DNA of 64,000 bases from a virus (IMGVR_UViG_2822706143_000001), one strand, 5' to 3'; shown: positions 33,459 through 61,986, numbered from the stretch's first letter. The notes: a model not told the origin generated them from the sequence alone. Program-made: numbers and translations.

Positions 33459-33486
33459 ACTACCGATAAGGTTACTTATGTAAACA
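33459..33486 (+). other. dif-like Xer recombination site A
   Basis: ACTACCGATAA-GGTTAC-TTATGTAAACA vs B. subtilis dif ACTTCCTAGAA-TATATA-TTATGTAAACT (11-6-11). Confidence 0.7.
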
Positions 33487-33843
33487 AGACTTTCGGGAAA
33501 TATGCCGTCATATCAACGTTTGTGGCAATTTCATGAACTTCCACTTACAACATGTTTTATACATCGTTGATTTTACGCTGTTATTCCCCTAAAACCTCCG
33601 CTTTCCCTTGTATAAACTTCACTTAGTTAACTATCTCTATTTTTATCGAAATTTACGTAACAAAATATATGATGTGTTACATTAGATGGTTTTTAAATCA
33701 CCTTTACAATATTTGGTTTGTGTTGAGTTTGTTTTGTTAGAACAAGGTAAATCTATCAATTCTATTAAATCCATCAATTTAACTATTACATATTAATATT
33801 CAACTCATATACTGTAGTAGTTTACTAGAAGGGAGGCGTAACC

Positions 33844-33981
33844 ATGGAAAGTTGCGTTGTGTTTGTAAATGGCCAACCTTTTTTAGTTCTTACAGTAGCT
33901 GGTATCGAGATTGCTAGATTAGAGATTTCTCTTCAAGTAGCATTAGCTCTAAGAGTGCTTGGAATACCGATTTGTGATTAA
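33844..33981 (+). CDS. DUF3956-like small Cys-containing protein (ExsG-like)
   Basis: MESCVVFVNGQPFLVLTVAGIEIARLEISLQVALALRVLGIPICD; GGGAGG RBS; AC-N16-CATAtacTG sigma-K-like promoter; terminator about 33992-34025. Confidence 0.8.
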   Translation: MESCVVFVNGQPFLVLTVAGIEIARLEISLQVALALRVLGIPICD

Positions 33982-34464
33982 TTAGCATATCAAAAGAAAA
34001 AGAGGGATTCAGCCCTCTTTTTTTATTTTTCTTATCTTTCATTTGCACCAATTTGATTCATCATTGACCCATTAACGTTTAGGGCATTTACAACCATCAC
34101 GTATCGTATGAGAGCCTCTTCAAATCCACAACTTCTATTCAAGCACCATTTCTTTAATGGTATTTTCAAAGTACAATCTCCTCCAAAATAAAAAGAACCT
34201 GAATGGATGCTCTGATATCAATTATTTATTTGTACTTTAATTACGGTAAATGAAGTTTTACCCTTCTTCCAATCACCTAATGTTGCTGCAACAATCTTTT
34301 TATGCATTATTAAGTAACTGAAAGAAGAGCAAAAGCTCTCCTTAATAACGGTATCATTCAATCACTACCATCTGCTGGTTTCGGATTTTATGCGCCGTCA
34401 TTACGAACCGTTTAGAATTTTAGAAAAAACATAGTGAGTAGTGTTTTCCGCCACCTCTCACAAT

Positions 34465-34540
34465 ACAAATATAACATGCTAATTCCAAAACAACCGGCAC
34501 ACTTACTGCCAAATAACGGTCACGATTCTGCCATTTATTT
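34465..34540 (-). promoter_or_regulatory. Putative ArpU-activated late promoter with 11-bp-periodic repeats
   Basis: cggcac/ctgcca/cggtca/ctgcca at 11-bp spacing (34495-34533) with TATATT downstream on the minus strand; conserved in the remnant at about 59090-59161. Confidence 0.6.
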
Positions 34541-34620
34541 TAATTCGCTAATAACCTTTATTTTCCTAGATTACCTCACTGCAACAGCTACACTGAATAA
34601 ATTGAACTTTCTTTCAATAA

Positions 34621-35137
34621 CTATGCTTGATCGGATTGTAGAACATGTAATGGAGGCGGAATAATCCAACCTTTTTTCTTATTCAGACGAAGTAATATAG
34701 CTCCAGCTTGTGCTTTTTTCATATGAAATTGACCAAACATCATTCCAACATCTTCTCGAAGAGATTGTCCCATAGCTTGACTACATGCTACTAAGCCAGC
34801 AGCAAGATCCATAGAAACTTTAGCTGCAATTTCTGCATCATTAATACGAGCACCAGGAGGAATCGTTTCAATAGATGCGACTGGTCTTTCTGGAGGTGCT
34901 GGTGGTAATGCAACACCATTCAATTTCAAGATATTTTTTAATTCTTCAACTTCTGATTGGATATCATTCTCTACAAGGTTTTCTAAAAATTTCTTTAAAT
35001 CCTCGTCTCCTGTATGGTTAATAAGAACCTGATATCCAGCAATTGCGCCTTGTGCCGCTGCAAGATAACTCCAAATTCCAAAGACTTCTCCGTAGTGCAT
35101 TGGTTCATTTTGTGGATTTCCACTTAAAATACCCATA
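34621..35137 (-). CDS. DUF3231 family protein (spore-associated ferritin-like fold)
   Basis: MGILSGNPQNEPMHYGEV..., REDVGMMF, KKGWIIPPP; AAGGAGG RBS. Confidence 0.85.
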
Positions 35138-35482
35138 AAAATATTCCTCCTTAAAGAAATTAGACTTTTAGCAACAATACTTACTATAGAAAAAATTTTC
35201 TCAATCATGTTCTTGATTAAAGAAAATAAGTTCTTATAACTCATAAGGAACACCTTACCCAAATATAGTAATTACCTCCCATAGAATGTACCGTTACCAA
35301 AAATTTATGCTTATAAAGAATAAATACATTTCAATTAACTTAATCCATTATTATTAAGTACTTTTAATAATAAAAATTAAAGATATTTATCATAATTTGA
35401 TTTCAATTGGTTTTATATATTTTTAACCGAATATTGTCTAAAGGAACTGGAGACATTACTAAATGCGAAAGGAGGGAAAATC

Positions 35483-35812
35483 ATGAAGAAAAAACTTTCA
35501 TCTATTTTAGGTGCCCTATTACTAACTATTACGGTTTTTGGTACAAGCGTCCATGCTGAATACGATGGATATAATACGAATAGAGTTAACAACAATAATA
35601 TTACAAATCGAGCTAATGACTATAACACGACTAGAGTTAATGACTATAACATGAATAGAGTTAATAATGATGTGCGAACTCGAAATGTAAATACGACAAA
35701 TGATTTAAATGATAATCGTAATAAAAATAATAATTGGACTTGGCTTGGTTTGTTGGGACTACTAGGATTATTTGGTCTTAGAAAAAAAGACAATGATCCA
35801 GAAAGACGTTAA
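35483..35812 (+). CDS. Secreted WGxxGxxG-CTERM family protein
   Basis: Signal peptide, Asn-rich repeats, C-terminal NNWTWLGLLGLLGLFGLRKK. Confidence 0.85.
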   Translation: MKKKLSSILGALLLTITVFGTSVHAEYDGYNTNRVNNNNITNRANDYNTTRVNDYNMNRVNNDVRTRNVNTTNDLNDNRNKNNNWTWLGLLGLLGLFGLRKKDNDPERR

Positions 35813-36162
35813 TGTAAAACATTGTATTTAATTTTAAAAGATATTTATTTTTTAAAAATTAAATACAATTGTGATTTGAACCATAATTTTGCCGATTGGG
35901 CAGGCTTATGGTTCTTTCAGTTTGTGGCGATTCTCCTATAACCTCAATGTCTGCCTATACTATCCAAGACTGTTTCACCTATTGCTTATTAAGAGCAGGA
36001 GGTAATTTCTACGAATGTCAAAATATATGTAAACCACATCAACGGTAAAGAGTGTACCTGTCCTCTTTGAGCCCCTCAATCCTTGAAGGGCTCCCACGCT
36101 AGTTAATCAAATAATCTCTTCGCTTCGCTAAATCCATTTTGATTGACCAACATCCTTTTTTC

Positions 36163-36396
36163 CTATAACAGGGCCCTTACTACTACACCAAGTACTCCTG
36201 TTAACAATCCGCTTATGATTAATCGTAAAATCCATGTAGTATTTGCACTAATTTTATCTAATTGTTTATTTATAGTTAAAACATCCTTTTCAGCTACTAG
36301 TATTCTTGTTTCTAAATTTTTCATATCATGTTGCATAGCTTTTAAATCTAGTTTTATTTGATTAAAATCTTTTTCTAGTTCCTCCAATTTTGTCAT
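36163..36396 (-). CDS. XhlA-family small membrane protein
   Basis: Coiled coil, LDKISANTTWILRLII and a C-terminal TM helix. Confidence 0.75.
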   Translation of the reverse strand: MTKLEELEKDFNQIKLDLKAMQHDMKNLETRILVAEKDVLTINKQLDKISANTTWILRLIISGLLTGVLGVVVRALL

Positions 36397-36823
36397 ATAA
36401 CATATTTCTCCTTTAAAATTTATTTTTAACACTATATATACATATGATAATTAAAGGATAATGATACAAAGAGAAGTCCCAAATCTAGTAGGGGTGCACA
36501 ACCTGCCCATCAAGCTACATTAATAAAAAACAGATGCAATTAATCGGAAACAATGAATTTCTTAACTTAAAAGTAATAGAGCATTACATCTGTTTGAAAA
36601 AACTACATTCCTTTTTTATGCCTTTTCTTCACTTACCCATATGTTCTATTGTGTGTAACTGCCCCTTTTGCTGAATCCCTTGGTATCATTGATTTCATTT
36701 TACTTTCTCTTTTGAGTTACACAGTACGAAAATTATGAGTAACTGTATAGGGATACCACCAGTATTTTGCAAAATAACCTACGCTATGAGGAAAAATAAA
36801 ATAAGCTGCCCATGCGGACAGCT

Positions 36824-36851
36824 TATTTACATAATTATCGTTACTGGAAGT
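36824..36851 (-). other. dif-like Xer recombination site B
   Basis: Minus strand ACTTCCAGTAA-CGATAA-TTATGTAAATA. Confidence 0.75.
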
Positions 36852-36941
36852 GAATAGTTTCAGATTAAAATGAACTAAATAATCAGGGGAGCGGTCAAGT
36901 CCAAACCGAGTTCTGTATGTAACATATATTGATTAAATGTA

Positions 36942-38108
36942 TTGATAAAGAAAGTGAGGCTAACACAAATGAACACTTCCAATCAATTTAACCCTCCTAT
37001 TCTGTTTATCCCAAAAGAGAAAGAATGTTACGAAAAAAGAATATGTGTCTTGGTTTCCATCAAGATAGATCCTAAGACTTTATCTCTTTGTTCAAGTTTG
37101 AGCCATCAGTTTACTGCGACAGGCACGTATTCTGACAAATCAACTAGGGACATTACAAAACTTGTAGAGTGGTACTCTAGCAATCTTTCAAGTGCAATAG
37201 TTTCAAATGAGGAAGAAACAAAAGGTTTGACTACAGCAATTAATACTGGGGAAGCTCAAATTTTTGCAAGATTAGACGGAATCATGAGTTCGGATAGTTG
37301 TCTCACCGTTACTGAACCAGTGGTTCAAATGACAAATTTAAAGGGATCCAATGATTATACGTTGGATATAAATAAAACAGTTTCTACTACTGAGACAACC
37401 AGTATGAATTGTCCTAGTAGCACTTTCGTTTTTGGTAAGGGCGTCTTACTGCTTGAGAATGATGTTGCTTCCTATGACTTCGCCAAACAACTTTGGTCAC
37501 TCACTCAATATACTGTTGTGCAGATATCTCCATCAATTATCAAAGATCAATACACTACAGGTAAACAACTGGCAGCGGATTACTGGTGTGTTTGGATCGA
37601 AATCCAAGGGAATATTACTGATCTGGACGTCATGGAATTAATGCAACCAGGAGGAATCATTGATGAATTCACCAAGCTTGGTGGAATTTTCATTGTACAC
37701 GATACCGATACTAATCCAATAATTGTAACATCTTCTGAAGGATTTGAGTTCATTGGGGGTAAATCTGAGTCACTAACACAATTTTCGAAGCTTGTACAAA
37801 TACCTTTGTCCTTTGAGTATCTTCGAACATATTTATATAATAACTCTATCAAGAAAGAAGGTGACTCTATGGCTCTTGAAACTAACTGTCAGACTTGTAC
37901 TCCTCCTGAAGGTTCCACATCGATTCTTACTGTGGATATACCAGGTGGTCTAGCTATTAATCTATTGGGGATTCATATCGAAGCTTGTCCGATCTGCGTT
38001 ACAGTATTCATTGATGGATCTGATACACTTACATCTCAACAACAAGATATCGCAAATAATCTCATCAAAGTAGTACAGAGTTTGGTTCCAACTATTCCTG
38101 GTGCTTAA
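36942..38108 (+). CDS. Ig-like (Big_2) domain protein with Cys-rich C-terminal module
   Basis: QFTATGTYSD.STRDIT..VEWYSSN...A.VS motif; start codon uncertain; internal RBS and ATG at 37869. Confidence 0.65.
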   Translation: MIKKVRLTQMNTSNQFNPPILFIPKEKECYEKRICVLVSIKIDPKTLSLCSSLSHQFTATGTYSDKSTRDITKLVEWYSSNLSSAIVSNEEETKGLTTAINTGEAQIFARLDGIMSSDSCLTVTEPVVQMTNLKGSNDYTLDINKTVSTTETTSMNCPSSTFVFGKGVLLLENDVASYDFAKQLWSLTQYTVVQISPSIIKDQYTTGKQLAADYWCVWIEIQGNITDLDVMELMQPGGIIDEFTKLGGIFIVHDTDTNPIIVTSSEGFEFIGGKSESLTQFSKLVQIPLSFEYLRTYLYNNSIKKEGDSMALETNCQTCTPPEGSTSILTVDIPGGLAINLLGIHIEACPICVTVFIDGSDTLTSQQQDIANNLIKVVQSLVPTIPGA

Positions 38109-38214
38109 AGGGAAATAGTTTGTAATTTAATACAGGGCTTGACCAAAAAACGGTCGAGTCTTTTTTTCCAAAATGCTGGCGATACCCCTAGATTTAAAAA
38201 GAAAAAAGCAATGA

Positions 38215-38757
38215 TTAGATTTTAAACCTAGTCATTGCTTTATCCATTTCATCTTGATTTACACCTATATAACGTAATGTGACCTTCTCTGACGAGTGAT
38301 TGAATATCTCCATGAGTAATGCTATGTTTTTCGTTTGCATGTACATATGATACCCGTACGTCTTTCTTAGCGTATGTGTTCCTATTTCATCTAATCCGAA
38401 CTCTGCTGCGGCTATACTTAATATCTTATATGCCATGCTGCGACCGATAGGACGATTCTTCCCTTGTCTACTTTGTAATAAATACTCATTATCTTCTCTT
38501 TCTTCAATGAACCATTTAAGTTCTCTTTTTAATGCTGCAGTAATTTGAATACGTTTTTGTTTTCCTGTTTTCTTTTCCCTCATAGAGATATGGCTGCCTT
38601 TGACATCACCTACTTTTAATTTCAAAATATCTGATATTCTAAGACCTGTATTAATACCCATAATGAAGAGAATGTAATTACGTAAGCTCTTTTCCTTAAA
38701 ATACTCTTTTAGCTGCTGTATTTCTTCTGGATCACGTATTGGCTGAACAAAATTCAT
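38215..38757 (-). CDS. Small tyrosine recombinase (catalytic domain only, 180 aa)
   Basis: GLRISD (R), KTGK (K), THTLRKT (HxxR), NHSS (H), LRYIG (Y). Confidence 0.92.
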   Translation of the reverse strand: MNFVQPIRDPEEIQQLKEYFKEKSLRNYILFIMGINTGLRISDILKLKVGDVKGSHISMREKKTGKQKRIQITAALKRELKWFIEEREDNEYLLQSRQGKNRPIGRSMAYKILSIAAAEFGLDEIGTHTLRKTYGYHMYMQTKNIALLMEIFNHSSEKVTLRYIGVNQDEMDKAMTRFKI

Positions 38758-39239
38758 TATTCATTACCTCCAGTCTCTTCTGTCTCGTAAACTTCTAATC
38801 CAAGTGCAAAAGCAAGCTTATAAAAAGCTTTAGACTTCCAACGTCGATAAGTACGCTCTGACATTCCGATTTCGTTATAGACCATGTAATCACATACATC
38901 CTCTTCTTCTAAATAACGTTTATAAATAATATCCCTTTGAATACTTCCAGCACGTCCGTTTCCTAATCGAGTTAGAAACTGATCAATACGTACTGACATT
39001 CTCTCAAGCCACTCTTCTCGTTTACTTTGTTGAATATTCGCTATAGCAACATCTTCTAACGGTTTTCCGACTGCATGTGTAGGACCATGCTCACGTATTT
39101 CATAAGAAGGAGTGACCTTCATTTCTTTACGCATCATCCCGAATTGTCTATGTATACGTATACTTTCCAACACGCCTTCTAATTCCTCTTGGGTTGCCGT
39201 TCTATCGATTTTTGGTAAGAAAGATAATTGTTTAGTCAT
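38757..39239 (-). CDS. ArpU-family late (packaging/lysis) transcriptional activator
   Basis: IIYKRYLEE..CDYMVYNEIGMSERTYRRWKSKAFYKLAFAL. Confidence 0.9.
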   Translation of the reverse strand: MTKQLSFLPKIDRTATQEELEGVLESIRIHRQFGMMRKEMKVTPSYEIREHGPTHAVGKPLEDVAIANIQQSKREEWLERMSVRIDQFLTRLGNGRAGSIQRDIIYKRYLEEEDVCDYMVYNEIGMSERTYRRWKSKAFYKLAFALGLEVYETEETGGNE

Positions 39240-39266
39240 GTAAGACCACTCCTTTTTATTTTTTAA

Positions 39267-39446
39267 TTATTTTTGTCTTAAAGCTCCACGTCTCAGCTCA
39301 TAACAAGGTCTATGCATCCCCATTAAATCCTCAATTTCACGAGTGCTAAATTTCTCTTTTCGTTTTTTCTTATTTTTCTTTTTTGATTGGTTCGATTGCT
39401 TTTTCCATTCACGTAATTGATCTTTTAATACCTTCATTCCCCACAT
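39267..39446 (-). CDS. Small basic phage protein
   Basis: MWGMKVLKDQLREWKKQS...EIEDLMGMHRPCYELRRGALRQK; AAAGGGG RBS. Confidence 0.7.
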   Translation of the reverse strand: MWGMKVLKDQLREWKKQSNQSKKKNKKKRKEKFSTREIEDLMGMHRPCYELRRGALRQK

Positions 39447-39597
39447 CCCCTTTTTTAAAATAAAAAGGACACCTATTCTTAAAACAGCTTTAATTACTGC
39501 TTTAATGAATTGGTGTCCTCTAGTTTTCTAGCCGGACTATATTCTGTTTGCTTTCACTTTAAAAGAATTATTGTTTTAACTGTTCTATTAAATTACT

Positions 39598-39785
39598 CTA
39601 TTCATCATTCCCTTCCAATTCCTCACTCTCTTCACGTATTTGTCCAATTAATGAAATTACAGAACCAACCGCTTGAACCCAACTTCCTATAATATCTATT
39701 AGCTTCCCTTCTTCATTTTCAGTAGTTTCGTTGTTTACCTGAGTGTTTGTATCTTTCTCCACATCATTTACTTTACCTTCTTTAT
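39598..39785 (-). pseudogene. C-terminal fragment of a DUF6944-like repetitive protein
   Basis: KLIDIIGSWVQAVGSVISLIGQ with no proper start. Confidence 0.45.
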
Positions 39786-40390
39786 TAGACTGTCACTCCT
39801 ACTACAGCATTTTCATATGTTATTGTGTAGCCGCATCTTTTCGGTTGTAAGCTCATTCATTTTATTTCTTAAAAACCTTCATGAAGTATCCTGCACTACA
39901 CACTCCGAGGAAAAGCGCTGTTCGAAGGCGCTCTTTTTTATCCTAATAATATTCACGATTTTGTACATACTACTCATAAGCTGCTTTCTTAACAGTGTTT
40001 GCAGCCCGGAACCTTTTTTAGGAAAAGGGGCAGTTAGCTTTTGCTAGCTGCTCCTTTTGATTTGCATCCCAACCATGAATGCAGTAGTTATATAAACTTC
40101 CATCAATATGCTCTGTACGTCCGTTGTATGTAACTTTTGTCCCACAAACTTCATTAACTTCTCGGACACTGCTTCTTGCTGTAAAAACATCATCTTAGTT
40201 TGCGAGGTAAATATAGAAGTGCCCTAATCCTGTATTACGGACCATCGCTTTTCCTTTGCAATCTTTCTTCAATTTACTTCTTAATGTTTCAATGTACATC
40301 TATTTCACCACTTTTCTACAAAATGAAATTTTTATATACATAAATACCTGACTAAATACCTAAAATAATTAAAAATTTAGGTGGTATTCA

Positions 40391-40486
40391 ATGAAAACAG
40401 CACTCACGATCCTTAAATATTTATTAATTACACTAGGAATTACTTGCTTAATTATTTTAGGTTACATATGGTATTTTCCACATTAA
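40391..40486 (+). CDS. 31-aa single-TM peptide
   Basis: MKTALTILKYLLITLGITCLIILGYIWYFPH; AGGTGG RBS. Confidence 0.7.
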   Translation: MKTALTILKYLLITLGITCLIILGYIWYFPH

Positions 40487-41372
40487 TTCAAATAGCGTTT
40501 TGTTCAAATTAACGACCATAAAGTCGAACATATTTACCAGTATTTTTACCAATAAATTCATGATTACCTTAAATTTTTTTCGCCTTTTAATTGGACAGGC
40601 ATATGATGTTTTATGGAGGCATCCACTTATAGCAATCTACCTTTCTTGTCAAAGGGCATACTTATATGTGTGCTCTTTTTGTTTGTTATGAAGAAACGCT
40701 TTTGTTCACATTTCTGATACATTTATGAAACTTCATGTGTTATCTTTAATAAGTTCTTTAACTACAGAAAGATTTATTATGTAAAAAGTCCTAATCCCCT
40801 CTAGGGCTTTTTACATTGAAATAACGATTTTATAATTCATCAACATCTTCATGCCCGCGTAATACATCTGTAAACATTACTGAATTTCTTGCTTTTCTCA
40901 TTTCCCATGTGACACAACCTTTTATTGAGCGCTAGGATCAATCCTAGCCTTTTTTACGCAAGATAAAGATTTTATTTAAACTCGCACCTACACCAAAAAC
41001 ATACATACAATATTATGGGTATTCTTTTTCAATATTAGTTTTGGTCAGAGCGTCTTTCTCTCAAGGCGCTCTTTATTCTTTAATGACAGGCTCCATAACT
41101 CCAAGTAAGGCATACAATATTCAAAATTCACTCGTAAAAATCTGATTACGATTTTCTGAATTTTTTATATTTCATGAGACATTCACATACCTTACTAAGG
41201 GTGCATATAAAAATGCGCTCTTTTTGGTATGGAATGTGAAATAAAGGCTTGCTCTTAAAACCTTTTATATAATTATTGTGGGGCGGGTTCCTTACACCAG
41301 TGTGTCTGTTTACTCATAAGTTGTTAAAGTATAAATATAAATTGTTAGTTAATTTATAAGGGAGGTGTAAAA

Positions 41373-42671
41373 ATGAGTAAATTTAAAAAGAATTGTCACA
41401 TACCCTTTCCATGTGCCTTTCCTTTACCTCAAATCGGGTCTACTGGATTAACTGGTGCTACTGGACCTTCGGGACCTACTGGAGCTACCGGACCTTCAGG
41501 TGGACCTCGGGGACCTACCGGGCCTACTGGAATTCAAGGTAGCCTGGGACCTACTGGGCCTCAAGGTATTTCTGGACCTCAAGGGATTCCTGGGATTTCT
41601 GGATCTATTGGTCCAACTGGACCTTCTGGAATCCAAGGTATCCAAGGTATCCAAGGCATTCCTGGCATTCAAGGTCCTATTGGACCCACTGGAATAACAG
41701 GGGTCACTGGAATTCAAGGGATTCCTGGCATTCAAGGGATTCAAGGGATTCAAGGGATTCCTGGTCCGACCGGCCCTCAAGGGATTCCTGGCATTCCTGG
41801 TTCTGTAGGTCCAACTGGACCTTCTGGAGCTGTTGGACCTACCGGCCCTTCCGGGGGACCGCCAGGACCAACGGGCCCGACTGGACCTTCTGGGGGACCA
41901 CCAGGACCAACCGGAGTGACTGGCCCCACTGGACCTTCTGGGTCACCAGGACCAACCGGACTTCAAGGTATTCAAGGTATCCAAGGCATTCCTGGCCCCA
42001 CTGGACCTCAAGGAAGTCAAGGGATTCAGGGGATTCAAGGTAATCCGGGGCCTATTGGTCCTACTGGAATAACTGGGGCGACTGGAATTCAGGGTATCCA
42101 AGGTATTCAAGGTAATCCGGGACTTATTGGACCTATCGGCCCGACTGGCCCAACTGGGCTTCAAGGTATCCAAGGCATCCAAGGCATTCCTGGGCCTACT
42201 GGATTACCAGGAACCGCTGGAGCTACCGGATCTACTGGACCTACCGGACTTACAGTATCTGGGTTATCTCATTATGCTTATGTTTTCAATACAGCAGCTC
42301 AAGTTGTTGCCTTAGAAGCACCTATTCTTTTTAATTCACATGGTAGAATGACATCTGGTTTTACTCATACACTGGGAACTTCTCAATTAATGGTTCTTAA
42401 TGCAGGAGATTATAAAATTTCTTTTTCTGTATCAGGAGTTGAGCCTAATCAATTCACACTTTTTTTAAATGGTGCTCCGGTTACCAGCGCAGTTTATGGA
42501 TCAGGTGCAGGAACTCAACCAAACAACGGCCAAACAATCCTCGCTTTAGCTGCAGGTGATATTATTACCCTTAATAATCATACTTCCGCTGCTGCAGTTA
42601 CTTTGCAAACTTTAGCAGGTGGAACACAAACAAATATAAATGCTTCGATTGTAATTGAAAAGTTAAATTAA
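41373..42671 (+). CDS. BclA-like collagen protein with C1q/TNF-like C-terminal domain
   Basis: About 90 Gly-X-Y triplets (GPT, GIQ, GIP); C-terminal YAYVFN...[20 protein letters not shown]...NASIVIEKL. Confidence 0.9.
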
Positions 42672-43219
42672 TTATTTCTTGAAGCTCTGGCATTCAATAA
42701 TCTAGAGGGGATTCTTTTTTCAACAAGTAGTTAGCATTAGCGATTCATTGTCACATTACGATGAAATGGTCATATATTATTTCGAAGCAAGAAACCCTAA
42801 TCTACTTTTCAACATTTCACTTTTTCCCTAAAGAGCACCGTAAGTAAGTGCTCTTTTCTCATGGAATAAAAACTTGTCGCATTTATACCTGACAAGTATA
42901 CGTTATTGTATGGAGACTCTCCACTCATGGAAATCTACCTTTCTTGTCTCTGAGCACGCTTATATGTGTGCTCTTTTTCGCTTGTTATGAAATAAAGATT
43001 TTGTTTAGAATTTGCACATACGTTAAAAATACACATAGGATATATTGTTACCACTTTTCGATATGAGCCTTGGTCAAAGAGTGCTTTCCCGGGCGCTCTT
43101 TTTATGTTTAAATAAAGATTTTGTTTTACTTTTGCTAGCTACCCTTCCCTTGTATAAATGCACCTTTTTTTACATACCATATTAAAATCCAAATAATTCT
43201 CTTTTAGGACGGTACTAAT

Positions 43220-46252: not shown

Positions 46253-46262
46253 TACAATCCTC

Positions 46263-52011: not shown

Positions 52012-53154
52012 TTGAATATGAAAGGAAGTTTTCGTAAACGTGGAAATACGTGGTCTTTTACAATAGATATCGGTATAGATCCAACCACAGGAAAACGACA
52101 GCAAAAAAGTAAAAGTGGATTTAGAACAAAAAAGGAAGCCCAAAATGCTGCTGCAACGATGATTACAGAGATAGAGAAAGGAATATATTTTGATGACAAA
52201 CAATTAACTGTTTTAGATGTATGGGAAAAGTTAAAGCCTCTTCGTAAAGCTGAATTAAAAATTACATCTTATGAAAAAGACATGAGCTTAGTTAGGCTCT
52301 ATATCCTTCCCCCATTTAGTTATAAAAAAATTAAAAGTATTAAGCCCATAATGATTCAAAGCTACTATGCTGAACTTAAGGAAAAAGGACTATCAAATGG
52401 TACAATCAGCAATATCCACCGCTGCCTAAGATGCATTTTCAAACACGCTGTAGAATGGGAAATCATACATGATAATATAATGAATAAGGTTAAAAAAACA
52501 CGTGAAGAGCAAGGTGAGATGAAAACATGGTCCAGCGAAGAATGCAATCGATTCCTCCAGTATCTAAAAGAAAAAAATATTAAGTACCATATGTTCTTCT
52601 TACTTGCAATTTATACAGGTATGAGACGCGGAGAATTACTTGCACTAACATGGAAAGATCTTGACTTTGATAATAAACGTATCTTGGTTAATAAATCACT
52701 TGTAAAAACAGAAAAAGGACTATTTAAAGCTGCTACAAAAACTAAATCTTCAAATAGAAGCATTAGTATCTCTTCTTTTGTTATAGGAAAGTTACAATCC
52801 TACTACTCTTATAAAAAGAAAGAATTTTTCCGCTGGGGTATACACTTGAATGAAGAAGCCTTTATTTTCACCGGCAATACGATACATTCGCCCTTACATA
52901 TAGATGCTCCTCATCGGTTTTTGAATGATCACTATAAAAAAGCTGGTGTTTCTCGGATTCGTATACACGACTTACGACATACTCACGCTACACTAATGCT
53001 TCAGGCTGGGGAACACCCTAAAATCGTACAAGATCGCTTAGGACATTCATCTATTCAAATGACTTTAGACAAGTATAGTCACATCACACAGAACATGCAG
53101 CAACAAGCAGCAGAAAACTTCGAGAGCATAATAAAATCTAATGAAAACACCTGA
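52012..53154 (+). CDS. Prophage tyrosine integrase
   Basis: Arm-binding N-terminus (SGFRTKKEAQ), TGMRRGELLAL, HDLRHTHAT, RLGHSSIQMTLDKYSH. Confidence 0.95.
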   Translation: MNMKGSFRKRGNTWSFTIDIGIDPTTGKRQQKSKSGFRTKKEAQNAAATMITEIEKGIYFDDKQLTVLDVWEKLKPLRKAELKITSYEKDMSLVRLYILPPFSYKKIKSIKPIMIQSYYAELKEKGLSNGTISNIHRCLRCIFKHAVEWEIIHDNIMNKVKKTREEQGEMKTWSSEECNRFLQYLKEKNIKYHMFFLLAIYTGMRRGELLALTWKDLDFDNKRILVNKSLVKTEKGLFKAATKTKSSNRSISISSFVIGKLQSYYSYKKKEFFRWGIHLNEEAFIFTGNTIHSPLHIDAPHRFLNDHYKKAGVSRIRIHDLRHTHATLMLQAGEHPKIVQDRLGHSSIQMTLDKYSHITQNMQQQAAENFESIIKSNENT

Positions 53155-53172
53155 TAAAAAATGAAAAGATTT

Positions 53173-53260: not shown

Positions 53261-53469
53261 GGAGAAGAATGAGCAGTTTTAGAATTGTTCATTTTATATT
53301 ATATAAAACTACAAAAGTGTCACAAGTGCCTGTCATACAAGCATTTGCGACACTTTTTATTAACTACACTAATGCTTATTACTAAAAATTCAACTTTAAA
53401 ATATAAATAAAAAAAGAAAAGGACGATTTCTATCGCACTTTTCAAATCACATCCTATAAAGGCACTCTA

Positions 53470-53745: not shown

Positions 53746-54504
53746 GTAAGTTGCTCCCTCTATTATTTAATAGCTCTTTCGTTACAGTTTTAAATATTTC
53801 AACGTATCTTTAACTATTATTCACACCAAAAGCAAACAATGCTTCCTATGTAAATGAATTCGATACCTTTCGTCTTCTTCCTGCCCAACTGCACAAATAA
53901 AAAGTAACGAATAAAGACTCTAATATACAAACGTTTAAATAGGAGCAATTCGCTAAACGACAACATTATCGCACCAAAAAATAACAATGCTACTTTTTCA
54001 GGTGCAATTCGTATAATAAGCGTTTCATCAATAATTCAATTTATTTAGAACTTCAGTTCATTTTTCTACCAAATTATTAATTTTTTCGTCTTCAAAAATC
54101 GTTATACATATTATTCTAATAAACTATATTTCACCATTTGAGTGCTTTATATTCCAAATCTACCACCTTATACAGGATAGGCATACATGCCAATAGTAGT
54201 TCATTTACATATACTACTATGTATCTTACATTTATTAATCATCAGGAGGTAATATATTGGGTTCATACTATCGTTCTTCAAACTCGTATAAAAGATGTTC
54301 CTGCCACGATTCACATAAACCATCAAAGCCAGCTTACGGTACTTTCTGGAAAACTGAGTTTATAACTGTTCCTTTTGGTGGTTCTTTCCCATTATAGAAC
54401 GTAACCCCCTATTTCATTATTCTGTTAACCTAATAAACATAAAAAATTGCCGTCCCCTTCTAACACAAGGTTTCGGCAATATTCATATCAAAATCTATTC
54501 ACTC

Positions 54505-56106
54505 TTACTTCTCCACATAAACCGACTTAACAATCGTACGATTATAAGGTTTTCCTTCTTTATTTATCCCTTTTATATCCATCGTAACGTTATATACCCC
54601 TGGTTGCTTTATGTCCTTCAAAGCACCTGTAAATGTATTTGTATTAACATTTTGTAATTCATTAAATTCAGAGACTAGCTTCCCTTCTTTATTAACAACT
54701 CTTACTGTTATGGAAAGATTTCCTTTCATTTCAGGTGCCGCAGGTGATTTTTTCAGTTTATACTCTGATTTGTTAATTTTGACTTTTGTTGGCATTTGAA
54801 GAACGAATGGCGCGCCACTTTTGTGATCGCTTACAATTAAGTATGCATCTTTCGACTGCTTCGCCATCATTTTAACTCTCCATTCTCCTACGTCCATTTT
54901 GTCAAATTTAAATGTACTAATTGTTGCCCCATTAAAGAAAGATTCACCTTCACCAGTAGTTATCGTACTATCTTTATTTGTATACACTTTTCCTTTTGGA
55001 GATATTAGTTGTATTTCTACATCAGAAGCAGCTGTTAATACAGAAACCATTCCTTCTGCCTTTTTATCAACCGCCACAGCTTGCTCTATCCACTGACTTT
55101 GTGGCAATTCTCCCCCTAAAATATTTTGATTAGAAGTTGTATTTAATTGCTCTATATTTTCTTCTGAACTATTACTTGGTGCTACTAAAGGTGGCACGCC
55201 TACATTTGCAGTACGTAAATATGGTTCAATTCGTGCGAAAACAGCTGATCCTTTTCGTATATTGTCATGATCAAATTTGGAATCTGTAAATAAATGTGTG
55301 CCATATGGTAGCTTAGCACTCCATTCATTTACTAATCCATCATTCGAGCCGTACGATGACAAATATAATCCGCCCATAGATAACGCAGAAAATACTGGTC
55401 CCCAGCTAGTCCCAGTAGCCGTATAGTAACGGTTTAATTTAACTGCTGGATTATTATCTATCGTTGAGCGAAATTTTGCCATTTCCCCTATCTGTAACGC
55501 GTACGTACCATCATCTTTTTGACCTAATATAGAAGCAAGCCAACCTGCCCACCAACTATATGATAAATCCGCTAAATTTGAGCCGTGATGTGGTGTCGCA
55601 AGTGTAATAACATTCCCAACAAATCGATTCGCACCATATCCAACTAATGCCGCTTGTGTATCTATACCACCTTTACTATGCGCTACAATAGTAACCTTTT
55701 TACCGAAATGATTATATATTTCTTCCAGTTTTTGTGCTAACAATTTTCCGTTGTCCCACTGACTAGCCGATCCTTTCCCTGCCGCATCATATAATTGAAT
55801 AAATACCGTTTGATATCCCGCTTTCAAAGCATAGTCATACATATCATTTATATCGTGATATACAGTCTTTCCATACCAACTATCCGCATTACCATTTCTG
55901 CCTTGTACAAAGAGAATTGGAGGCTTATTCTCATCATAATTAGTTGGTTTTTGTCCTAAAAACCAATCGCCAGGTGTAAATACTTCTGTATCAGGAAACC
56001 CCTTTCCAAGCTCTTTTACAACTTCTGCCCTTACATTTGTGCTAATCGATGGAGCCATGATAAAAAATATAATTAGTAAGGCAACACATCTTCTCATTAA
56101 TCGCAT
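54505..56106 (-). CDS. Secreted alpha/beta-hydrolase (lipase/esterase)
   Basis: Signal peptide, AHSKGG nucleophile elbow, TLATPHHGS, NDGLV, DHD. Confidence 0.85.
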   Translation of the reverse strand: MRLMRRCVALLIIFFIMAPSISTNVRAEVVKELGKGFPDTEVFTPGDWFLGQKPTNYDENKPPILFVQGRNGNADSWYGKTVYHDINDMYDYALKAGYQTVFIQLYDAAGKGSASQWDNGKLLAQKLEEIYNHFGKKVTIVAHSKGGIDTQAALVGYGANRFVGNVITLATPHHGSNLADLSYSWWAGWLASILGQKDDGTYALQIGEMAKFRSTIDNNPAVKLNRYYTATGTSWGPVFSALSMGGLYLSSYGSNDGLVNEWSAKLPYGTHLFTDSKFDHDNIRKGSAVFARIEPYLRTANVGVPPLVAPSNSSEENIEQLNTTSNQNILGGELPQSQWIEQAVAVDKKAEGMVSVLTAASDVEIQLISPKGKVYTNKDSTITTGEGESFFNGATISTFKFDKMDVGEWRVKMMAKQSKDAYLIVSDHKSGAPFVLQMPTKVKINKSEYKLKKSPAAPEMKGNLSITVRVVNKEGKLVSEFNELQNVNTNTFTGALKDIKQPGVYNVTMDIKGINKEGKPYNRTIVKSVYVEK

Positions 56107-56656
56107 GTTACTCCCCCCACTTTTTTTGAAAGAAGGTGCTCTTTGTAATAATTTATATTTTCTCCCTTAATAATAGCTAATCTTTTTATTTGAAAAAGAT
56201 GTTAGCCCTATATTCAGGTGATTACTCGTACACCCTCTTCCTTAACTCACGTTATTCTCTTCGTTTCCATCTCTTCCTTTTGAGTAAACACGACAAAAAA
56301 ATTTCTCAATAATTGTTAACTTCACTACATCAAGATGTTTTTCAAATCATGATTGTTTATATAAAGCATACAAATCTTGAAAAAATTTTATTAAAAAAAC
56401 ATTTTATTACTAATTAGTTATTTAAAAACATAATGAAGATATGTATTTTCTTTTCATTACATACAAACGAATTTAAAAGGAGCTTGTATTGTAAGACTTT
56501 CTTATGACTAAATATTTAACTGAAATTTCAAAATATAAAATCATATTTCCAGAAACATATATTATGATAATTTCCGCAGACTTGAATTAAGTTTTTAGAA
56601 GTACTAACCTATCGGTAAGCAGAAGAAAATTCTGTAAAAAGAAAGGAGAATGCTTT

Positions 56657-57496
56657 ATGATGACCAATTTACAAAAGGAGTTTTTTAAACGATTAAAAAT
56701 TCCCGCAAAAGAACTAACATTTGATGATTTAGATGAAGTCCTCTTAAAAATGGGAATGATTTTCCCCTATGAGAATCTTGATATTATGGCTGGTACTATT
56801 AAAAACATTTCAAAAAATAACTTAGTAGAAAAGTTACTTATTCAAAAAAGAGGCGGTCTTTGTTATGAATTAAATTCCTTATTGTATTACTTTTTAATTG
56901 ATTGTGGGTTTCAAGTATACAAAGTAGCTGGTACTGTATACGATCTTTACGATAATAAATGGAAACCTGATGATGGTCATGTCATTATCATTTTAAGTCA
57001 TGATCATACAGATTATATTGTGGATGCAGGTTTTGCATCTCATCTCCCTTTACATCCAGTCCCTTTTAATGGCGAAATCATATCTTCTCAAACGGGAGAA
57101 TATCGAATTTACAAACGAAATACCCGAAAAGGTACACATATTTTAGAAATGCGAAAAGGCGCAAACGGCGAATCTACAAGTTTCTTACAATCTGAACCTT
57201 CAACCGAATGGAAAATAGGCTATGCTTTCACTATAGATCCAATAGATGAGAAAAAAGTGAATAACATTCAAAAAGTAATTGTAGAGCATAACGAATCGCC
57301 TTTTAATAAAGGGGCTATCACTTGTAAATTAACTGATTATGGTCACATATCATTAACGAAAAAAAATTATACAGAAACCTTTAAAGGCACAAAAAATAAA
57401 CGACCAATAGGTTCTAAAGAATATGCTCGCATTCTTCGTGAATCTTTTGGAATCACTCAAGAGAAATATGTAGGAAAAATATTAGAAAGAGGCTAG
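56657..57496 (+). CDS. Arylamine N-acetyltransferase
   Basis: PYENLD, RGGLCYELN (catalytic Cys), GHV, VDAGF. Confidence 0.93.
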   Translation: MMTNLQKEFFKRLKIPAKELTFDDLDEVLLKMGMIFPYENLDIMAGTIKNISKNNLVEKLLIQKRGGLCYELNSLLYYFLIDCGFQVYKVAGTVYDLYDNKWKPDDGHVIIILSHDHTDYIVDAGFASHLPLHPVPFNGEIISSQTGEYRIYKRNTRKGTHILEMRKGANGESTSFLQSEPSTEWKIGYAFTIDPIDEKKVNNIQKVIVEHNESPFNKGAITCKLTDYGHISLTKKNYTETFKGTKNKRPIGSKEYARILRESFGITQEKYVGKILERG

Positions 57497-57640
57497 TTGA
57501 TTAAAAATATTTCATAATAAAGCAGATTCTATATATAGAATCTGCTTTATTTTATAATTTTTTATAGCGTAATTCCTTATCAGTGTTACTCTTTTAAAAG
57601 ACTAGTATTATTAAGCATTTCTTTTTGTGCCATGTATTAC

Positions 57641-57850
57641 TTACATTTCAATTATATACTCATCATCATATTTATCGTATTGTAGCCCTGCTCCTATTTT
57701 TGATTCCGTAACTTGATCCCTTAAAAACGGTGCGGCTTCCATTTTGCTAGTTGCAATTTCAATTCCATATTTTTTCGTTAAATGAGCTAACTCTATTAAA
57801 AACCACTCTCTTCGCAATGAAACTGGAATATCTAATGTTCTTCTTTTCAT
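57641..57850 (-). CDS. Hypothetical protein
   Basis: AAAAGAGGTG RBS before MKRRTLDIP. Confidence 0.55.
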   Translation of the reverse strand: MKRRTLDIPVSLRREWFLIELAHLTKKYGIEIATSKMEAAPFLRDQVTESKIGAGLQYDKYDDEYIIEM

Positions 57851-58058
57851 ATATAATAGCACCTCTTTTATTTTCATAACTTAAAAGAATATCACTTATC
57901 AAAACTATCGTTCATCACAAACGCCAATGAAACATTATAGTATATGCATGTCCATTTTAAACGTGCTAATATAAAACACCATTATAGTTTACATAAAATA
58001 ATTATGTAATAGTAGAAAGAGGAGGCTTGTCCTCCTCTTTCTACTATAGAGATTTAAA

Positions 58059-58211
58059 TTAAGAACATCTTGGTACACCAAAAGCTAAAAATAATGCTGC
58101 TACTCCTGCTGTAATCGGTACTTTTAACGTAATTACATCGTCTACCTTCGTTACTAAAAAGTACGCATTACCTTCTTGTAATATACAATTCACTAACAAT
58201 TGAAATTCCAT
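58059..58211 (-). CDS. exsG: Exosporium protein G-like (50 aa)
   Basis: MEFQLLVNCILQEGNAYFLVTKVDDVITLKVPITAGVAALFLAFGVPRCS; AAAGGAGG RBS; symbol from my recollection of the ExsG sequence. Confidence 0.75.
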   Translation of the reverse strand: MEFQLLVNCILQEGNAYFLVTKVDDVITLKVPITAGVAALFLAFGVPRCS

Positions 58212-58571
58212 TCAAATCTCCTCCTTTCAATCGATATACTTTAATTTATGAAATTTCTTTAAAAAAGTAATAGGAAATATATCTATTTTTCTTTATATAC
58301 ACATTAATTGTTTATATATATATCTATTAAAAATATTAATTTTCGAAATGAATATAAAACGTGTATTATCCAATAAGTTCCTATATAATCAATAGAGAAA
58401 ATCTTGCAAATGGAAGTATGAAAATGGCTATTTTGAGTAATATTGGTGGCGTATTATTTCTATTTGCTTTTAATCTTTTAATCTTATGTATCCTTTTCAT
58501 TCTTTAAGAAAAATGGAAAAGCAAAACAATATGGTCGTCCTACCGTTATCTTTTTTATTATTTCTATTGTA

Positions 58572-58781
58572 TTAATAATGACCGGTACAACAAAATCTGA
58601 ACACCCAGTTATCGAATTTTTTACTTTGGCGTTGTATATCTTCCAACTCATTAAAGATTGGAATAACACTTTCTAATTTCTTTTTATCGATACGTTCATT
58701 TACAAGATCCCGTCCTAACATTGAAATGAATGTACCAATTATAACCGCTTGTGCTGGTTTAGTTAATTTGGCTTTATCCAT
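58572..58781 (-). pseudogene. Phage hypothetical protein, apparently frameshifted
   Basis: GGAGG RBS; occupies the slot immediately after the conserved leader block. Confidence 0.45.
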
Positions 58782-59168
58782 CCTTCATCCCTCCAAAATA
58801 AAAAGCACCCGAATGGATGCTTTTTCATTAAGTATTACATTTGCATTTCAATTATGGTAAATGAAGTTTTATTCTTCTTCCAATCACCTAATCTTATTTA
58901 CATTTATCTGTTTCAGCAATATTAAGTAACTAAAAGAAGAGCAAAACCCCTTCTCCGTTTATACAACGTAAATTGCAATTGAATGTGAAATGAAGAACAA
59001 CCATTCATCCAGCCTGCAACCATCACCACCAGTTATGAAGATCCATTTTCAGAGGAATTTTATGAGCAATGTTTTCGTCCACTTCTCACAATACAAATAT
59101 ATCACGTTAACTCCAAAACGACCGGCACATTTACTGCAAAAAAGCGATCACGAATCTGCCACCTTTCT

Positions 59169-60134
59169 TTAATTGATTGTAGCTCTTATTCTATTAAGTA
59201 ATGAATCTTTTAATTCCCTCTCATCTTTCCAAACAATATGGCTATATTGTCTAGTATCAAAATGCAGATTTGCTAAGTCATTTTCCCTGCAAGTCCATAT
59301 TACAGGTTTACCAAGTCCCATTGCATAGCCGGCTTCAAAATAGACGTCACCTCTATGTTCAGTAAAATCTGCAATTATAAATTTACTTTGTCTTATTTTA
59401 ACTATAATCTCATCATCAATTTTGTTATTGTGTTCCACTTTATCAATTCGAATAGGCTCATAACCTGCTTCTTTTACAGCCGTTGCAATTGCATTCTGAT
59501 ATAGACTATCCATTTTTGGACTAAATGACATAGCGACAAACACCTGCTTAGTATCCGCTTCTCTTCCCTTTTCTAATTCTGCAATACGATTCCACCCTTT
59601 TGCTGTAACTGTAATATGTGCAGGAAAATCTGCTGCAGATAGCTTAGATATCTCAATTAATTCGTCCTGAAATAATTGGTTCGCTATATATTTCATTTCC
59701 AACAAATGAACACTCTGTACAAAAAATAGAGATTTATCTGATTCACGAATATATAATGGGTCACCTGGAAATTTTGACAATTTAGCTAAGTTTATTAATG
59801 ACTCATCCAATCTATCAGAAGCACTATCTGGATATTCACTTAATAGATCCGCTAAAAGATAAATAGGATACGGAAATTCTGAAAGATTTTCATCTGGTCG
59901 ATTAAGAAAAATCATTATTTTTCCCATCCCTCTAATGTTTCTCTTTCTTAAAATTGCAGAAAGTTTTCTCTTCTGCTCTACATTTAATTCGATTCTCGCT
60001 TCTTCAATCATGGAAAATGTGCCACAATTCTCACATTTATATTGCTCTGCACGTCCCCCTCCCACTCCTACTAATTGGGGTTCCTCAATAGAGTTTTGAC
60101 AAACCGGACATCTTTCCCTCATCACAACCACCAC
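59169..60134 (-). CDS. Zn-ribbon + wHTH-like + nucleoside-deoxyribosyltransferase/TIR-like domain protein
   Basis: CPVC..CENC; C-terminal VFVAMSF...IRIDK...IDDEII.KIRQSKFIIADFT....VYFEAGYAMGLGKPVI. Confidence 0.8.
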   Translation of the reverse strand: MVVVMRERCPVCQNSIEEPQLVGVGGGRAEQYKCENCGTFSMIEEARIELNVEQKRKLSAILRKRNIRGMGKIMIFLNRPDENLSEFPYPIYLLADLLSEYPDSASDRLDESLINLAKLSKFPGDPLYIRESDKSLFFVQSVHLLEMKYIANQLFQDELIEISKLSAADFPAHITVTAKGWNRIAELEKGREADTKQVFVAMSFSPKMDSLYQNAIATAVKEAGYEPIRIDKVEHNNKIDDEIIVKIRQSKFIIADFTEHRGDVYFEAGYAMGLGKPVIWTCRENDLANLHFDTRQYSHIVWKDERELKDSLLNRIRATIN

Positions 60135-60371
60135 TTTCTTGTTTATAGCATAATATTAACATATAAATAATTGACTTACCCTTATCTTATATTGTGTGTA
60201 ACTGATCCTATCACTGAATCCCTTGCTATCATTAATTTTATTTAACTTTCTCTTTTGAGTTACACAGTACAAAAATTATGAGTAGCTGTATAGGGAGGGA
60301 TACCACCAGCATTTTTCAAAATAACCTACGCTATGCGGGAACATAAAATAAAGCTGCCCATATGGACAGCT

Positions 60372-60399
60372 TATTTACATAATTCTCGAAAGTGGAAGT
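60372..60399 (-). other. dif-like Xer recombination site C
   Basis: ACTTCCACTTT-CGAGAA-TTATGTAAATA. Confidence 0.7.
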
Positions 60400-60419
60400 T
60401 AATCAACGAGGGTTGAATC

Positions 60420-61157
60420 TCAATATTTTCTTGATTTAATGATAATAGAAGATGGTCTCCGTTTTTCATTTATTAATTCTGGCATTTTTTCTAATCCTGT
60501 TGGAGTTGACTCTGGCTCAATAATTTTCTCAATTACAAAACCGTTGTCTATAAGAGTATTAATTAATGTTGAAATTGTTCTGTGATATTTAACAACACCA
60601 TCTATCCACCAATGTTCCTCTCTTTTTCCTTCTTCTTGATAATTATCTAATGCCCAATGCAATCTGTTTCCATTATTATCCTTAAACCAATTATTCATTT
60701 CCTTTCGAGCTGTTACTATTGGATGTTCTGTTGAAAAGATAAATTCACCATCATTTTTTAACAGATCTCTTATTTTCTTAATTAGATGTGAGTAATCTTC
60801 TATGTAATGTATAACTAAAGAACTTGTTATTAAGTCGAATTTTTGATTTGGCAAATTAAGTTCTTCTATTGGTACACACATATAATCTATTTTTTCGTTT
60901 TTGTTATACATTTCAGCTTGTTCAATCATATTTCTTGAGATGTCCACTCCTATAACTTTCGAGGCACCATTTTCTACACAGTACATAGAAAAATGACCAG
61001 TTCCACATCCCAAATCTAATACAGACTTATCTGTAAGATTAGCAATTATAGATTTAATTGCTGGCTGTTCAACAAAATCATTAAAGGTAAATCCATTTTC
61101 ACGTAATGACTTATAATTTTTAAAGAAAAACGGATTATCATAAATGTTTTGTTTCAT
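60420..61157 (-). CDS. Class I SAM-dependent methyltransferase
   Basis: VLDLGCGTG, GVDIS, FDLITSSLVIHY; GGAGG RBS before MKQNIYD. Confidence 0.9.
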   Translation of the reverse strand: MKQNIYDNPFFFKNYKSLRENGFTFNDFVEQPAIKSIIANLTDKSVLDLGCGTGHFSMYCVENGASKVIGVDISRNMIEQAEMYNKNEKIDYMCVPIEELNLPNQKFDLITSSLVIHYIEDYSHLIKKIRDLLKNDGEFIFSTEHPIVTARKEMNNWFKDNNGNRLHWALDNYQEEGKREEHWWIDGVVKYHRTISTLINTLIDNGFVIEKIIEPESTPTGLEKMPELINEKRRPSSIIIKSRKY

Positions 61158-61292
61158 TATATACCTCCTATAATACAATCTATATTTTTTATATTCTAGG
61201 GGGCATCCAAAAATTCCTATATTAACCAAAATACACTTCAACTAACCTGCCATTTAGTTGAATAAGGAACAGTGTATATCCTATACATGTTA

Positions 61293-61321
61293 GGTTGACA
61301 TAACGTCTCATTATCGGAAGT
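61293..61321 (-). other. dif-like site D (7-bp spacer)
   Basis: ACTTCCGATAA-TGAGACG-TTATGTCAACC. Confidence 0.6.
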
Positions 61322-61330
61322 GAAATGTGC

Positions 61331-61876
61331 TTATACATCCAGGCTGTTGATGATAGCTAATATTTGATGATCTGTCCATTTGCCATTAATCTTTACATTT
61401 TCTTTAGCTATACCTTCTTTTTTAAATCCTACTTTTTCTAATACACGAATAGATGCTATATTGCTAGGCATAGCTCCTGCTTCAATTCTATGTAGTTTTA
61501 ATTCTCTAAATGCAAAGTCTACAACAAGTCGAAGAGCCTCTGTTGTATAGCCCCTTGAATTATGCTCCCTATCTAAGGTAAATCCCGTATAACAGCTTTG
61601 GGCGGGATCCCTAGCAATTTGAGTTAATGAAATGTCTCCGATAAGTTTATCAGTTGCTTTTAAAAAGATTCCAAAAGCGTAAACTTGATCTTCAGCTTTC
61701 TTTTTTAATGCTCGTTCAATGCGCATTTTTTGATGTTCTTCTGTATAAAAGACTTCTGGGAGTAATGGACAAACTCGTTGAAAAAATTCGCGATTTCTAG
61801 TGTGTAAGTTAGCTAACTCGCTCGCGTCAGAAATTTTGTAAAGTCGAAGATATATTTGCTGTCCTACGATTTTCAT
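61331..61876 (-). CDS. RimJ/RimL-type GNAT acetyltransferase
   Basis: RGYTTEAL...F..L.LHRIEA...N.AS.RVLEKVGF..EG. Confidence 0.9.
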   Translation of the reverse strand: MKIVGQQIYLRLYKISDASELANLHTRNREFFQRVCPLLPEVFYTEEHQKMRIERALKKKAEDQVYAFGIFLKATDKLIGDISLTQIARDPAQSCYTGFTLDREHNSRGYTTEALRLVVDFAFRELKLHRIEAGAMPSNIASIRVLEKVGFKKEGIAKENVKINGKWTDHQILAIINSLDV

Positions 61877-61957
61877 AAAAAACCTCCGATATCCTTTTAA
61901 TACAATTTTATTCTCGTCAAATCTTATAAATTCCTTTTTTATATTATATTCATGTTA

Positions 61958-61986
61958 AGCTAACATGACGTCTCATTATCGATAAC
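61958..61986 (-). other. Degenerate dif-like site E (same spacer as D)
   Basis: GTTATCGATAA-TGAGACG-TCATGTTAGCT; 14-bp identity ACGTCTCATTATCG with site D. Confidence 0.5.

Follow-up and report, generated by a model that had tools for sequence, protein, structure and literature searches.

Dif-like sites in transposase-less Tn3-type elements of Bacillus cereus-group prophages and plasmids, a candidate Xer-type cassette family

Introduction

Cargo modules that depend on Xer recombination have so far been described as a specialty of Acinetobacter plasmids, in which pdif modules, small recombinase-free units with short Xer-type sites and diverged central regions, shuffle adaptive cargo between replicons. 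Here, we analyze a 64,000-nt stretch of viral DNA, IMGVR_UViG_2822706143_000001 (the window, by which we mean this whole stretch), where five dif-like sites, A to E, accompany the cargo genes of one prophage (prophage 1) and of the remnant of a second. We put at roughly 0.6 the probability that these sites belong to a family of Xer-type cassettes that extends across the Bacillus cereus group, is carried in transposase-less Tn3-type elements, and is served by the host Xer recombinases. A literature search on Xer or dif cassettes in Bacillus found none, which is not proof of absence; the literature found describes dif modules only for Acinetobacter, and Tn3-derived miniature elements in B. thuringiensis without mention of Xer sites.

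The units described here share the traits of pdif modules listed above, with acetyltransferase, methyltransferase, cold-shock protein, and OLD-family nuclease genes as cargo. Unlike pdif sites, which are inversely oriented, the cassette sites are direct; the two ends of a cassette carry two heterologous site classes, S1 with 6-bp and S2 with 7-bp spacers; and the whole is nested in a Tn3-derived element that occurs in prophages and chromosomes of a Gram-positive host. An earlier reading of the window, made from its sequence alone (the sequence-only reading), had equated the geometry with that of pdif modules, but C, D, and E, as well as the S2/S1 pairs in all elements examined, are direct repeats, and the inverted pair A/B is not a unit.

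Other described systems share parts of this anatomy. Plasmid Xer sites (cer, psi) and IMEX such as CTX phage are likewise substrates of host XerCD with non-dif central regions of 6-8 bp, but they serve dimer resolution or integration at chromosomal dif, whereas here the sites bracket exchangeable cassettes and their spacers are unlike chromosomal dif. In cer, psi, and IMEX, one strand pair is exchanged on the XerC side and the reaction is finished by other means. Integron cassettes also form arrays of single, mostly promoterless-looking genes, each with a directly oriented site, and our hybrid sites fit excision and re-insertion as in integrons; in contrast, there is no IntI and no attI here, and the sites are duplex dif-like cores rather than folded attC hairpins. 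Non-autonomous Tn3-family elements, known as mobile insertion cassettes (MICs) and TIMEs, are exemplified by MITEBth3 (PMC6199540). Our elements resemble them in their 38-bp repeats (GGGG...ACGCTAAG), the lack of a transposase, 5-bp duplications in plasmid copies, and passenger genes, but published descriptions of MICs and TIMEs mention no internal Xer-type sites or cassette turnover, and the phage copy described here has lost its 5-bp duplication and one repeat tip. Finally, Tn4430 has a resolution site just inside one terminal repeat, served by the tyrosine recombinase TnpI, whose core site is a perfectly symmetrical pair of 14-bp repeats set 4 bp apart and accompanied by DR1 and DR2 (PMC2847244).

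Dif-like sites in the window and across the B. cereus group

We scanned both strands of the window, without bias, for matches to the B. subtilis dif arms and took expectations from Markov simulations of the same 64 kb. Matches of at least 17/22 numbered 4 (0.6 expected) and matches of at least 18/22 numbered 2 (0.06 expected), and the three best were D (18/22), A (18/22), and B (17/22). The dif of the B. cereus group is ACT[A/G]CCTATAA-TATATA-TTATGTTAACT (Kono 2011 supplement), and against its arms site A scores 19/22, for which the expectation is 0.003 per window. All five sites of the sequence-only reading read as it described them, and its view that they are Xer-type is supported. They have the format of Xer sites (11-bp arms with inner ATAA/TTAT around a 6-8 bp centre), with 6-bp spacers in A, B, and C and 7-bp spacers in D and E. 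Arms of the sites and their relatives agree with dif at 16-21 of 22 positions (up to 21/22 to the dif of the genus) and reproduce its left/right asymmetry.

Of the 25 genus genomes searched, 12 have the group dif, each in one copy, and it lies mid-chromosome in all three complete chromosomes among these 12. Natural dif variants, CCGATAA and TTATGTCAAC, turn up in cassette sites too. No chromosomal dif was recognized with four patterns in the nearest genome (G001, one of the 25), where it may be masked or divergent; a candidate at 4.596 Mb was dropped because it is not conserved.

Beyond the window, two classes of site recur. S2 has a left arm like GCTACCGATAA, the 7-bp spacer TRRGACG, and a right arm like TTATGTTAAC that is identical or near-identical to that of dif. 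S1 has a left arm like ACTTCCAATAA, the 6-bp spacer CGAKAA, and the right arm TTATGTAAATA, with an intrinsic terminator immediately after it, and its conservation starts exactly at the first arm base. Both classes occur on plasmids, chromosomes, and prophages of the B. cereus group, in direct orientation and around single genes. An exact 24-nt S2 pattern has 58 loci among species representatives, almost all from this group, and a palindrome, TGTATA-N3-TATACA, is conserved in 58 sites about 6-20 bp past the S2 right arm (e.g., 61273-61292). In the canonical map, a terminal repeat at -190 is followed by S2 at 0, 350-1300 bp of cargo, S1, and, 62 bp from where S1 starts, a second terminal repeat; site E occupies the position that S2 holds in this map. 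There are also arrays, with S2 85 bp on from S1, and many of these lie far from any terminal repeat.

Chance resemblance in AT-rich DNA could account for C alone (15/22) or E alone (16/22), both of which fall within the chance range, but it has next to no probability for the sites as a set: it is refuted by the simulations, by the score of A, by relatives that reach 21/22, and by 58 exact 24-nt matches concentrated almost entirely in one species group. The five sites are confirmed as real, with A and D far above chance.

A transposase-less Tn3-type element carries sites B to E

The sequence-only reading missed that the cargo next to sites B to E sits in a Tn3-family element without a transposase, bounded by 38-bp terminal repeats (Table 1). 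To delimit it, we fetched 37 loci that encode the same mini-recombinase as prophage 1 (a tyrosine recombinase of 180 aa, catalytic domain only) and ran BLAST of the window against them; loci compared are cited here by L numbers. Because many related prophages are "empty" and join 38189 straight to 36750, the stretch 36750-38188 is an insert. Copy 2 has its own empty allele in contigs of other public runs, which skip 60293-62183; apart from this allele, the runs, whose contigs cannot show rare excision events, had only paralogous copies.

The two copies share one junction, which lies 26 bp past the mini-recombinase gene. Copy 2 belongs to a degraded second copy of the prophage-1 ArpU/recombinase region that begins at about 58.8 kb. 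The earlier statement that B and C hold the same position in two prophage scaffolds stands, with homology ending at the cargo-side edge of the sites, but the second scaffold is a degraded remnant (recombinase 66 aa, ArpU 108 aa).

The 38-bp inverted repeats of the element begin with GGGG, end with ACGCTAAG, and enclose no transposase. The outer GGGGTAYCG.CAG (GGGGTACCG.CAG) and the inner ACGCTAAG are common to these repeats and to the ends of true Tn3-family elements with transposase genes in relatives. On plasmid L125, this same element with its Ig-like gene is flanked by a clean 5-bp duplication, TATTA, and another element, at L097, by the 5-bp duplication TTTCT. The unit is therefore a transposase-less Tn3-family MIC. 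In 411 B. cereus-group plasmids there are 526 occurrences of its left-end repeat region, and copies have about 190 bp in common on the left and about 100 bp on the right. All phage-borne copies (the two in the window and those at L001, L005, L007, L010, L011, and L015) have an identical junction, including a shortened distal repeat tip, which points to one ancestral insertion. At least 8 different cargoes stand in this one frame at this one junction, and 57 of the 58 S2 loci have no mini-recombinase gene, so that, as in pdif modules, many cargoes lie between the same sites with no recombinase. One of the phage-borne cargoes (L007, B. cereus AFS087218, 9371-11089) is an OLD-family nuclease (AAA_15 + OLD TOPRIM) of an anti-phage defense type; it is followed there by a 142-aa open reading frame (ORF) without a family.

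The Tn3-type ends bring in another candidate enzyme: a dedicated TnpI-like resolvase, from a transposon of the Tn4430 or Tn5401 type, that serves the sites in trans as the res sites of a non-autonomous element. The terminal repeats fit this, as does the placement of S2 about 190 bp inside a terminal repeat, comparable with the resolution site of Tn4430. However, the TnpI/IRS core, by its published description, is perfectly symmetrical, whereas S1 and S2 arms are asymmetric like host dif; many arrays lie far from any terminal repeat, and no TnpI-like gene was seen beside the sites. We consider this explanation unlikely.

The terminal repeats are presumably of the Tn4430 type; Tn4430 did not surface in a search for TnpI-like proteins. 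Four Tn3-type transposons of relatives have a repeat subtype that differs from that of the element. Directly outside the GGGG tip, several elements (flanks at L042, L065, L054, and L084) and one transposase-bearing Tn3-type transposon have the same 12-nt sequence, of the CTTGATGGGCAT type, which suggests a preferred target or a longer outer repeat.

Junctions and hybrid sites

One junction is site D. Plasmid L120 aligns with the remnant over the terminal repeat and the GNAT acetyltransferase gene as far as the right arm of D, and has an S1 site in D's place. In plasmid L119, the methyltransferase cassette stands directly behind the element left end, and identity to the window is 95.6% beginning with the final left-arm bases of D (element position 862 onward, a stretch that comprises the methyltransferase cassette together with site C and most of the distal repeat). 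By this three-way comparison, D has its left arm from S1 and its spacer and right arm from S2. The reciprocal hybrid, in which the left arm comes from S2 and the spacer, right arm, and terminator come from S1, is present in a cargo-less element (L156). In all loci compared, there are 8 hybrids of the S1-left/S2-right form and 3 of the S2-left/S1-right form, versus 44 parental S1 and 51 parental S2 sites.

At site B, sequence kinship switches within the core. On the cargo side, 300 nt to the left of the core are 97.3% identical to plasmid L125 and about 52% (unrelated) to phage-borne elements, whereas 85 nt to the right are 94-95% identical to phage-borne elements and 74% to L125. Cassettes common to prophages and plasmids begin at S2, as in the csp gene of L010 and L041 and the cassette of L015 and L042. 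Overall, internal homology ends within 20 bp of a site in 4.0% of cases versus 0.58% at random, a seven-fold enrichment that 0 of 500 randomizations reached. The proposal that cargo breakpoints coincide with sites was borne out. By these comparisons of natural recombinants, the crossover lies at the boundary between left arm and spacer.

Cargo could also turn over with no site-specific recombination at all, through homologous recombination between element ends, leaving the dif-like motifs only to resolve cointegrates or dimers or to regulate. The element ends held in common (about 190 bp and about 100 bp) would offer the homology, and the left breakpoint of the prophage-1 cargo is not at a site. 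Against this, the change of class in the hybrids falls exactly at the arm/spacer boundary, both reciprocal forms occur, there are arrays without element ends, and no sigma-70-type promoter was called at D or E when S2 was considered as a promoter. As a general account we find this improbable.

Site A lies just upstream of the late operon and faces the DUF3956 gene. Homology to the window begins exactly at its left arm in two of six comparisons (L136 and L143) and runs through it in the others (L044, L133, L003, and L146). The evidence is similar in kind to that at the other sites and weaker, and A is a third site variant that marks a mosaic boundary beside the DUF3956 block. The sequence-only reading was right that A and B face each other, with TTATGT arms inward, and wrong that the two bound one module. 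The interval between them has three separately variable slots whose breakpoints (34180/34545, 36628, and 36750) fall at a conserved leader (34180-34545) and a conserved late-promoter block (36628-36750), none of them at A or B, and B belongs to the insert on its other side. An invertible or exchangeable A-B module was therefore dropped: relatives keep the orientation and have their breakpoints elsewhere.

The mini-recombinase

The 180-aa protein, as described earlier, has an intact catalytic set (R40, the K62-K68 hairpin, H128, R131, H154, Y163) and no N-terminal core-binding domain; it aligns with positions 5-170 of the 172 in Pfam Phage_integrase, from residue 10. Among NCBIfam models it comes closest to XerA, XerS, XerD, and XerC, where it matches the C-terminal halves and falls far short of every cut-off (79.6 bits vs 220 for XerA; 48.1 vs 329.6 for XerD). 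Of the two-domain XerC/XerD architecture, only the catalytic half aligns. An integron-integrase model gave 31.9 bits vs a cut-off of 265, and the closest solved structure is 4a8e, a XerC-like recombinase. The 181-aa ORF at 61331-61876 is no recombinase but a GNAT acetyltransferase (Pfam Acetyltransf_3).

A role for the mini-recombinase in the exchange, alone or with a host Xer partner, would be in keeping with a full catalytic set nearest to the Xer type and with the position of the element 26 bp from the stop codon in several prophages. The link that had been drawn between this gene and the sites nevertheless dissolves on comparison: the gene is present at only 1 of the 58 S2 loci; "empty" prophages retain it but have no dif-like site in its vicinity; the junction does not vary, as expected of a single chance insertion; the gene is decayed in the remnant; and the protein is without a core-binding domain. 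In addition, the gene is split into two ORFs in phage Athena (L002, 5026-5568; lytic-propagated) and in the chromosomal L082 (3699-4237), and it therefore seems dispensable. We regard its involvement as very unlikely.

Proposed mechanism and its implications

The sequence-only reading had cargo swapped by RipX/CodV and/or the mini-recombinase; with the latter not linked to the sites, the host pair is the most economical choice. CodV/RipX (XerC/XerD) is most likely the recombinase, and we favor it because the arms reproduce the asymmetric host dif, an asymmetry that argues for a two-protein Xer pair rather than a homomeric enzyme. The nearest genome encodes a XerD that scores above the family cut-off.

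In the host-Xer model, B, C, D, and E are members of a family of Xer-type sites that delimit single-gene cassettes. The element would have entered the phage lineage a single time, at a point 26 bp past the mini-recombinase gene, and since then its frame (terminal repeats and junctions) would have stayed fixed with cargo turning over. Turnover would proceed by site-specific recombination in the cores of S1 and S2, the crossover falling where the left arm meets the spacer. Recombination of S2 with S1 would excise a cassette and leave an S2-left/S1-right hybrid in the element, and the S1-left/S2-right hybrid would go to the excised piece or to a fused junction; D is a hybrid of this form. Full Xer exchange normally needs matching central regions. 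The spacers of S1 and S2 do not match, and we therefore infer that a single strand pair is exchanged at the left-arm boundary, probably on the CodV side and with the junction finished by replication. What the sequences show is the site family, the element, where the junctions lie, and the hybrids, whereas the identity of the recombinase, this one-strand mechanism, and any circular intermediate are inferred.

Several observations weigh against the host-Xer model. With spacers of 6 vs 7 bp, a one-strand pathway has to be assumed. At the phage junction, only TA is repeated and there is no 5-bp duplication, and on its left the prophage-1 cargo is bounded not by a site but by a point within a truncated terminal repeat. 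Homologous recombination between conserved element ends could explain some of the swaps, and the palindrome beside S2 could be the binding site of a dedicated protein. The loci compared were also partly ascertained through the sites themselves.

A broader proposal, which we hold tentatively and at slightly less than even odds, is that the B. cereus group has an integron-like, host-Xer-driven cassette system with two heterologous dif-derived site classes, in which cassettes excise and re-insert at the arm/spacer boundary and ride on Tn3-derived elements, and that the prophage element is a rewritable moron slot fed by a plasmid pool of cassettes. If true, a strategy seen so far on Acinetobacter plasmids would be a general one, operating in a group that includes relatives of B. 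thuringiensis and B. anthracis. It would join mobility at three levels, those of cassettes, transposon relics, and plasmids or phages, and provide a concrete mechanism for replacing prophage morons without disturbing the phage. Given the cassettes seen (acetyltransferases, a methyltransferase, a cold-shock protein, surface-type proteins, and the OLD-family defense nuclease), the system may move adaptive and anti-phage functions between plasmids and phages.

Other features of the window

Coordinates of the sites, elements, and scaffold genes are collected in Table 1.

Table 1. Positions of sites, element copies, and associated genes in the 64-kb window.
Feature	Position	Strand	Remarks
Site A	33459..33486	+	dif-like; 6-bp spacer GGTTAC; 19/22 to B. 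cereus dif arms
Site B	36824..36851	-	S1 class; 6-bp spacer CGATAA; 16/22 to B. cereus dif arms; terminator hairpin 36803-36824 abuts
Site C	60372..60399	-	S1 class; spacer CGAGAA; decayed left arm; 15/22; homologue of B; terminator 60351-60372 adjoins
Site D	61293..61321	-	hybrid: S1-type left arm with S2 spacer TGAGACG, right arm, and flank; 18/22
Site E	61958..61986	-	decayed S2 class; spacer TGAGACG; 16/22; about 150 bp inside proximal terminal repeat
Element copy 1 (prophage 1)	36750..38188	-	transposase-less Tn3-family MIC; 1.4 kb; Ig-like gene; holds B
Copy-1 terminal repeats	38151-38188(-), 36750-36787(+)		38 bp
Element copy 2 (prophage remnant)	60297..62175	-	1.9 kb; GNAT and methyltransferase cassettes; holds C, D, E
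Copy-2 terminal repeats	62138-62175(-), 60297-60334(+)		38 bp; flanks as in prophage 1
Ig-like cargo gene, 388 aa	36942..38108	+	Big_2 domain; Pfam PF02368, 1.6e-08
Methyltransferase cassette gene	60420..61241	-	Pfam Methyltransf_11, 2.7e-23
GNAT acetyltransferase cassette gene, 181 aa	61331..61876	-	Pfam Acetyltransf_3, 4.6e-27; 85% to plasmid L120 up to site D
Mini-recombinase, 180 aa	38215..38757	-	tyrosine recombinase, catalytic domain only; Pfam Phage_integrase 3.9e-23
ArpU regulator, prophage 1	38757-39239		translationally coupled to the 180-aa recombinase
Second-prophage remnants: mini-recombinase (66-aa ORF) and ArpU (108-aa ORF)	62449..63071	-	87-97% DNA identity to 38164-38681
Terminase and portal, prophage 1	about 29-32.5 kb	-	late genes
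Integrase, prophage 1	52012-53154

A conserved 123-bp block (36628-36750 and 60171-60296) with three copies of a CAGTTAC-type motif stands directly after the mini-recombinase gene in "empty" prophages and is probably an ArpU-dependent late promoter region. Between this block and the late genes is a conserved leader of ~370 nt (34180-34545 and 58790-59190) with two terminator-like hairpins, found in about 25 related loci. It matched no Rfam family, nor did a scan of the whole window at Rfam gathering thresholds return one; the leader may be an antitermination or other regulatory RNA.

The gene at 59169-60134 encodes a 321-aa protein with a weak N-terminal zf-Mss51 match (20.2 bits, cut-off 27) and a borderline match to nucleoside 2-deoxyribosyltransferase (28.7 bits vs a cut-off of 28.8); it is possibly a defense gene. 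At L004, the promoter block is followed by a gene with the same N-terminal start. In prophage 1, a collagen-like triple-helix repeat protein of 432 aa is encoded at 41373-42671, and 59-nt direct repeats (40622-40680 and 42920-42978) bracket its gene.

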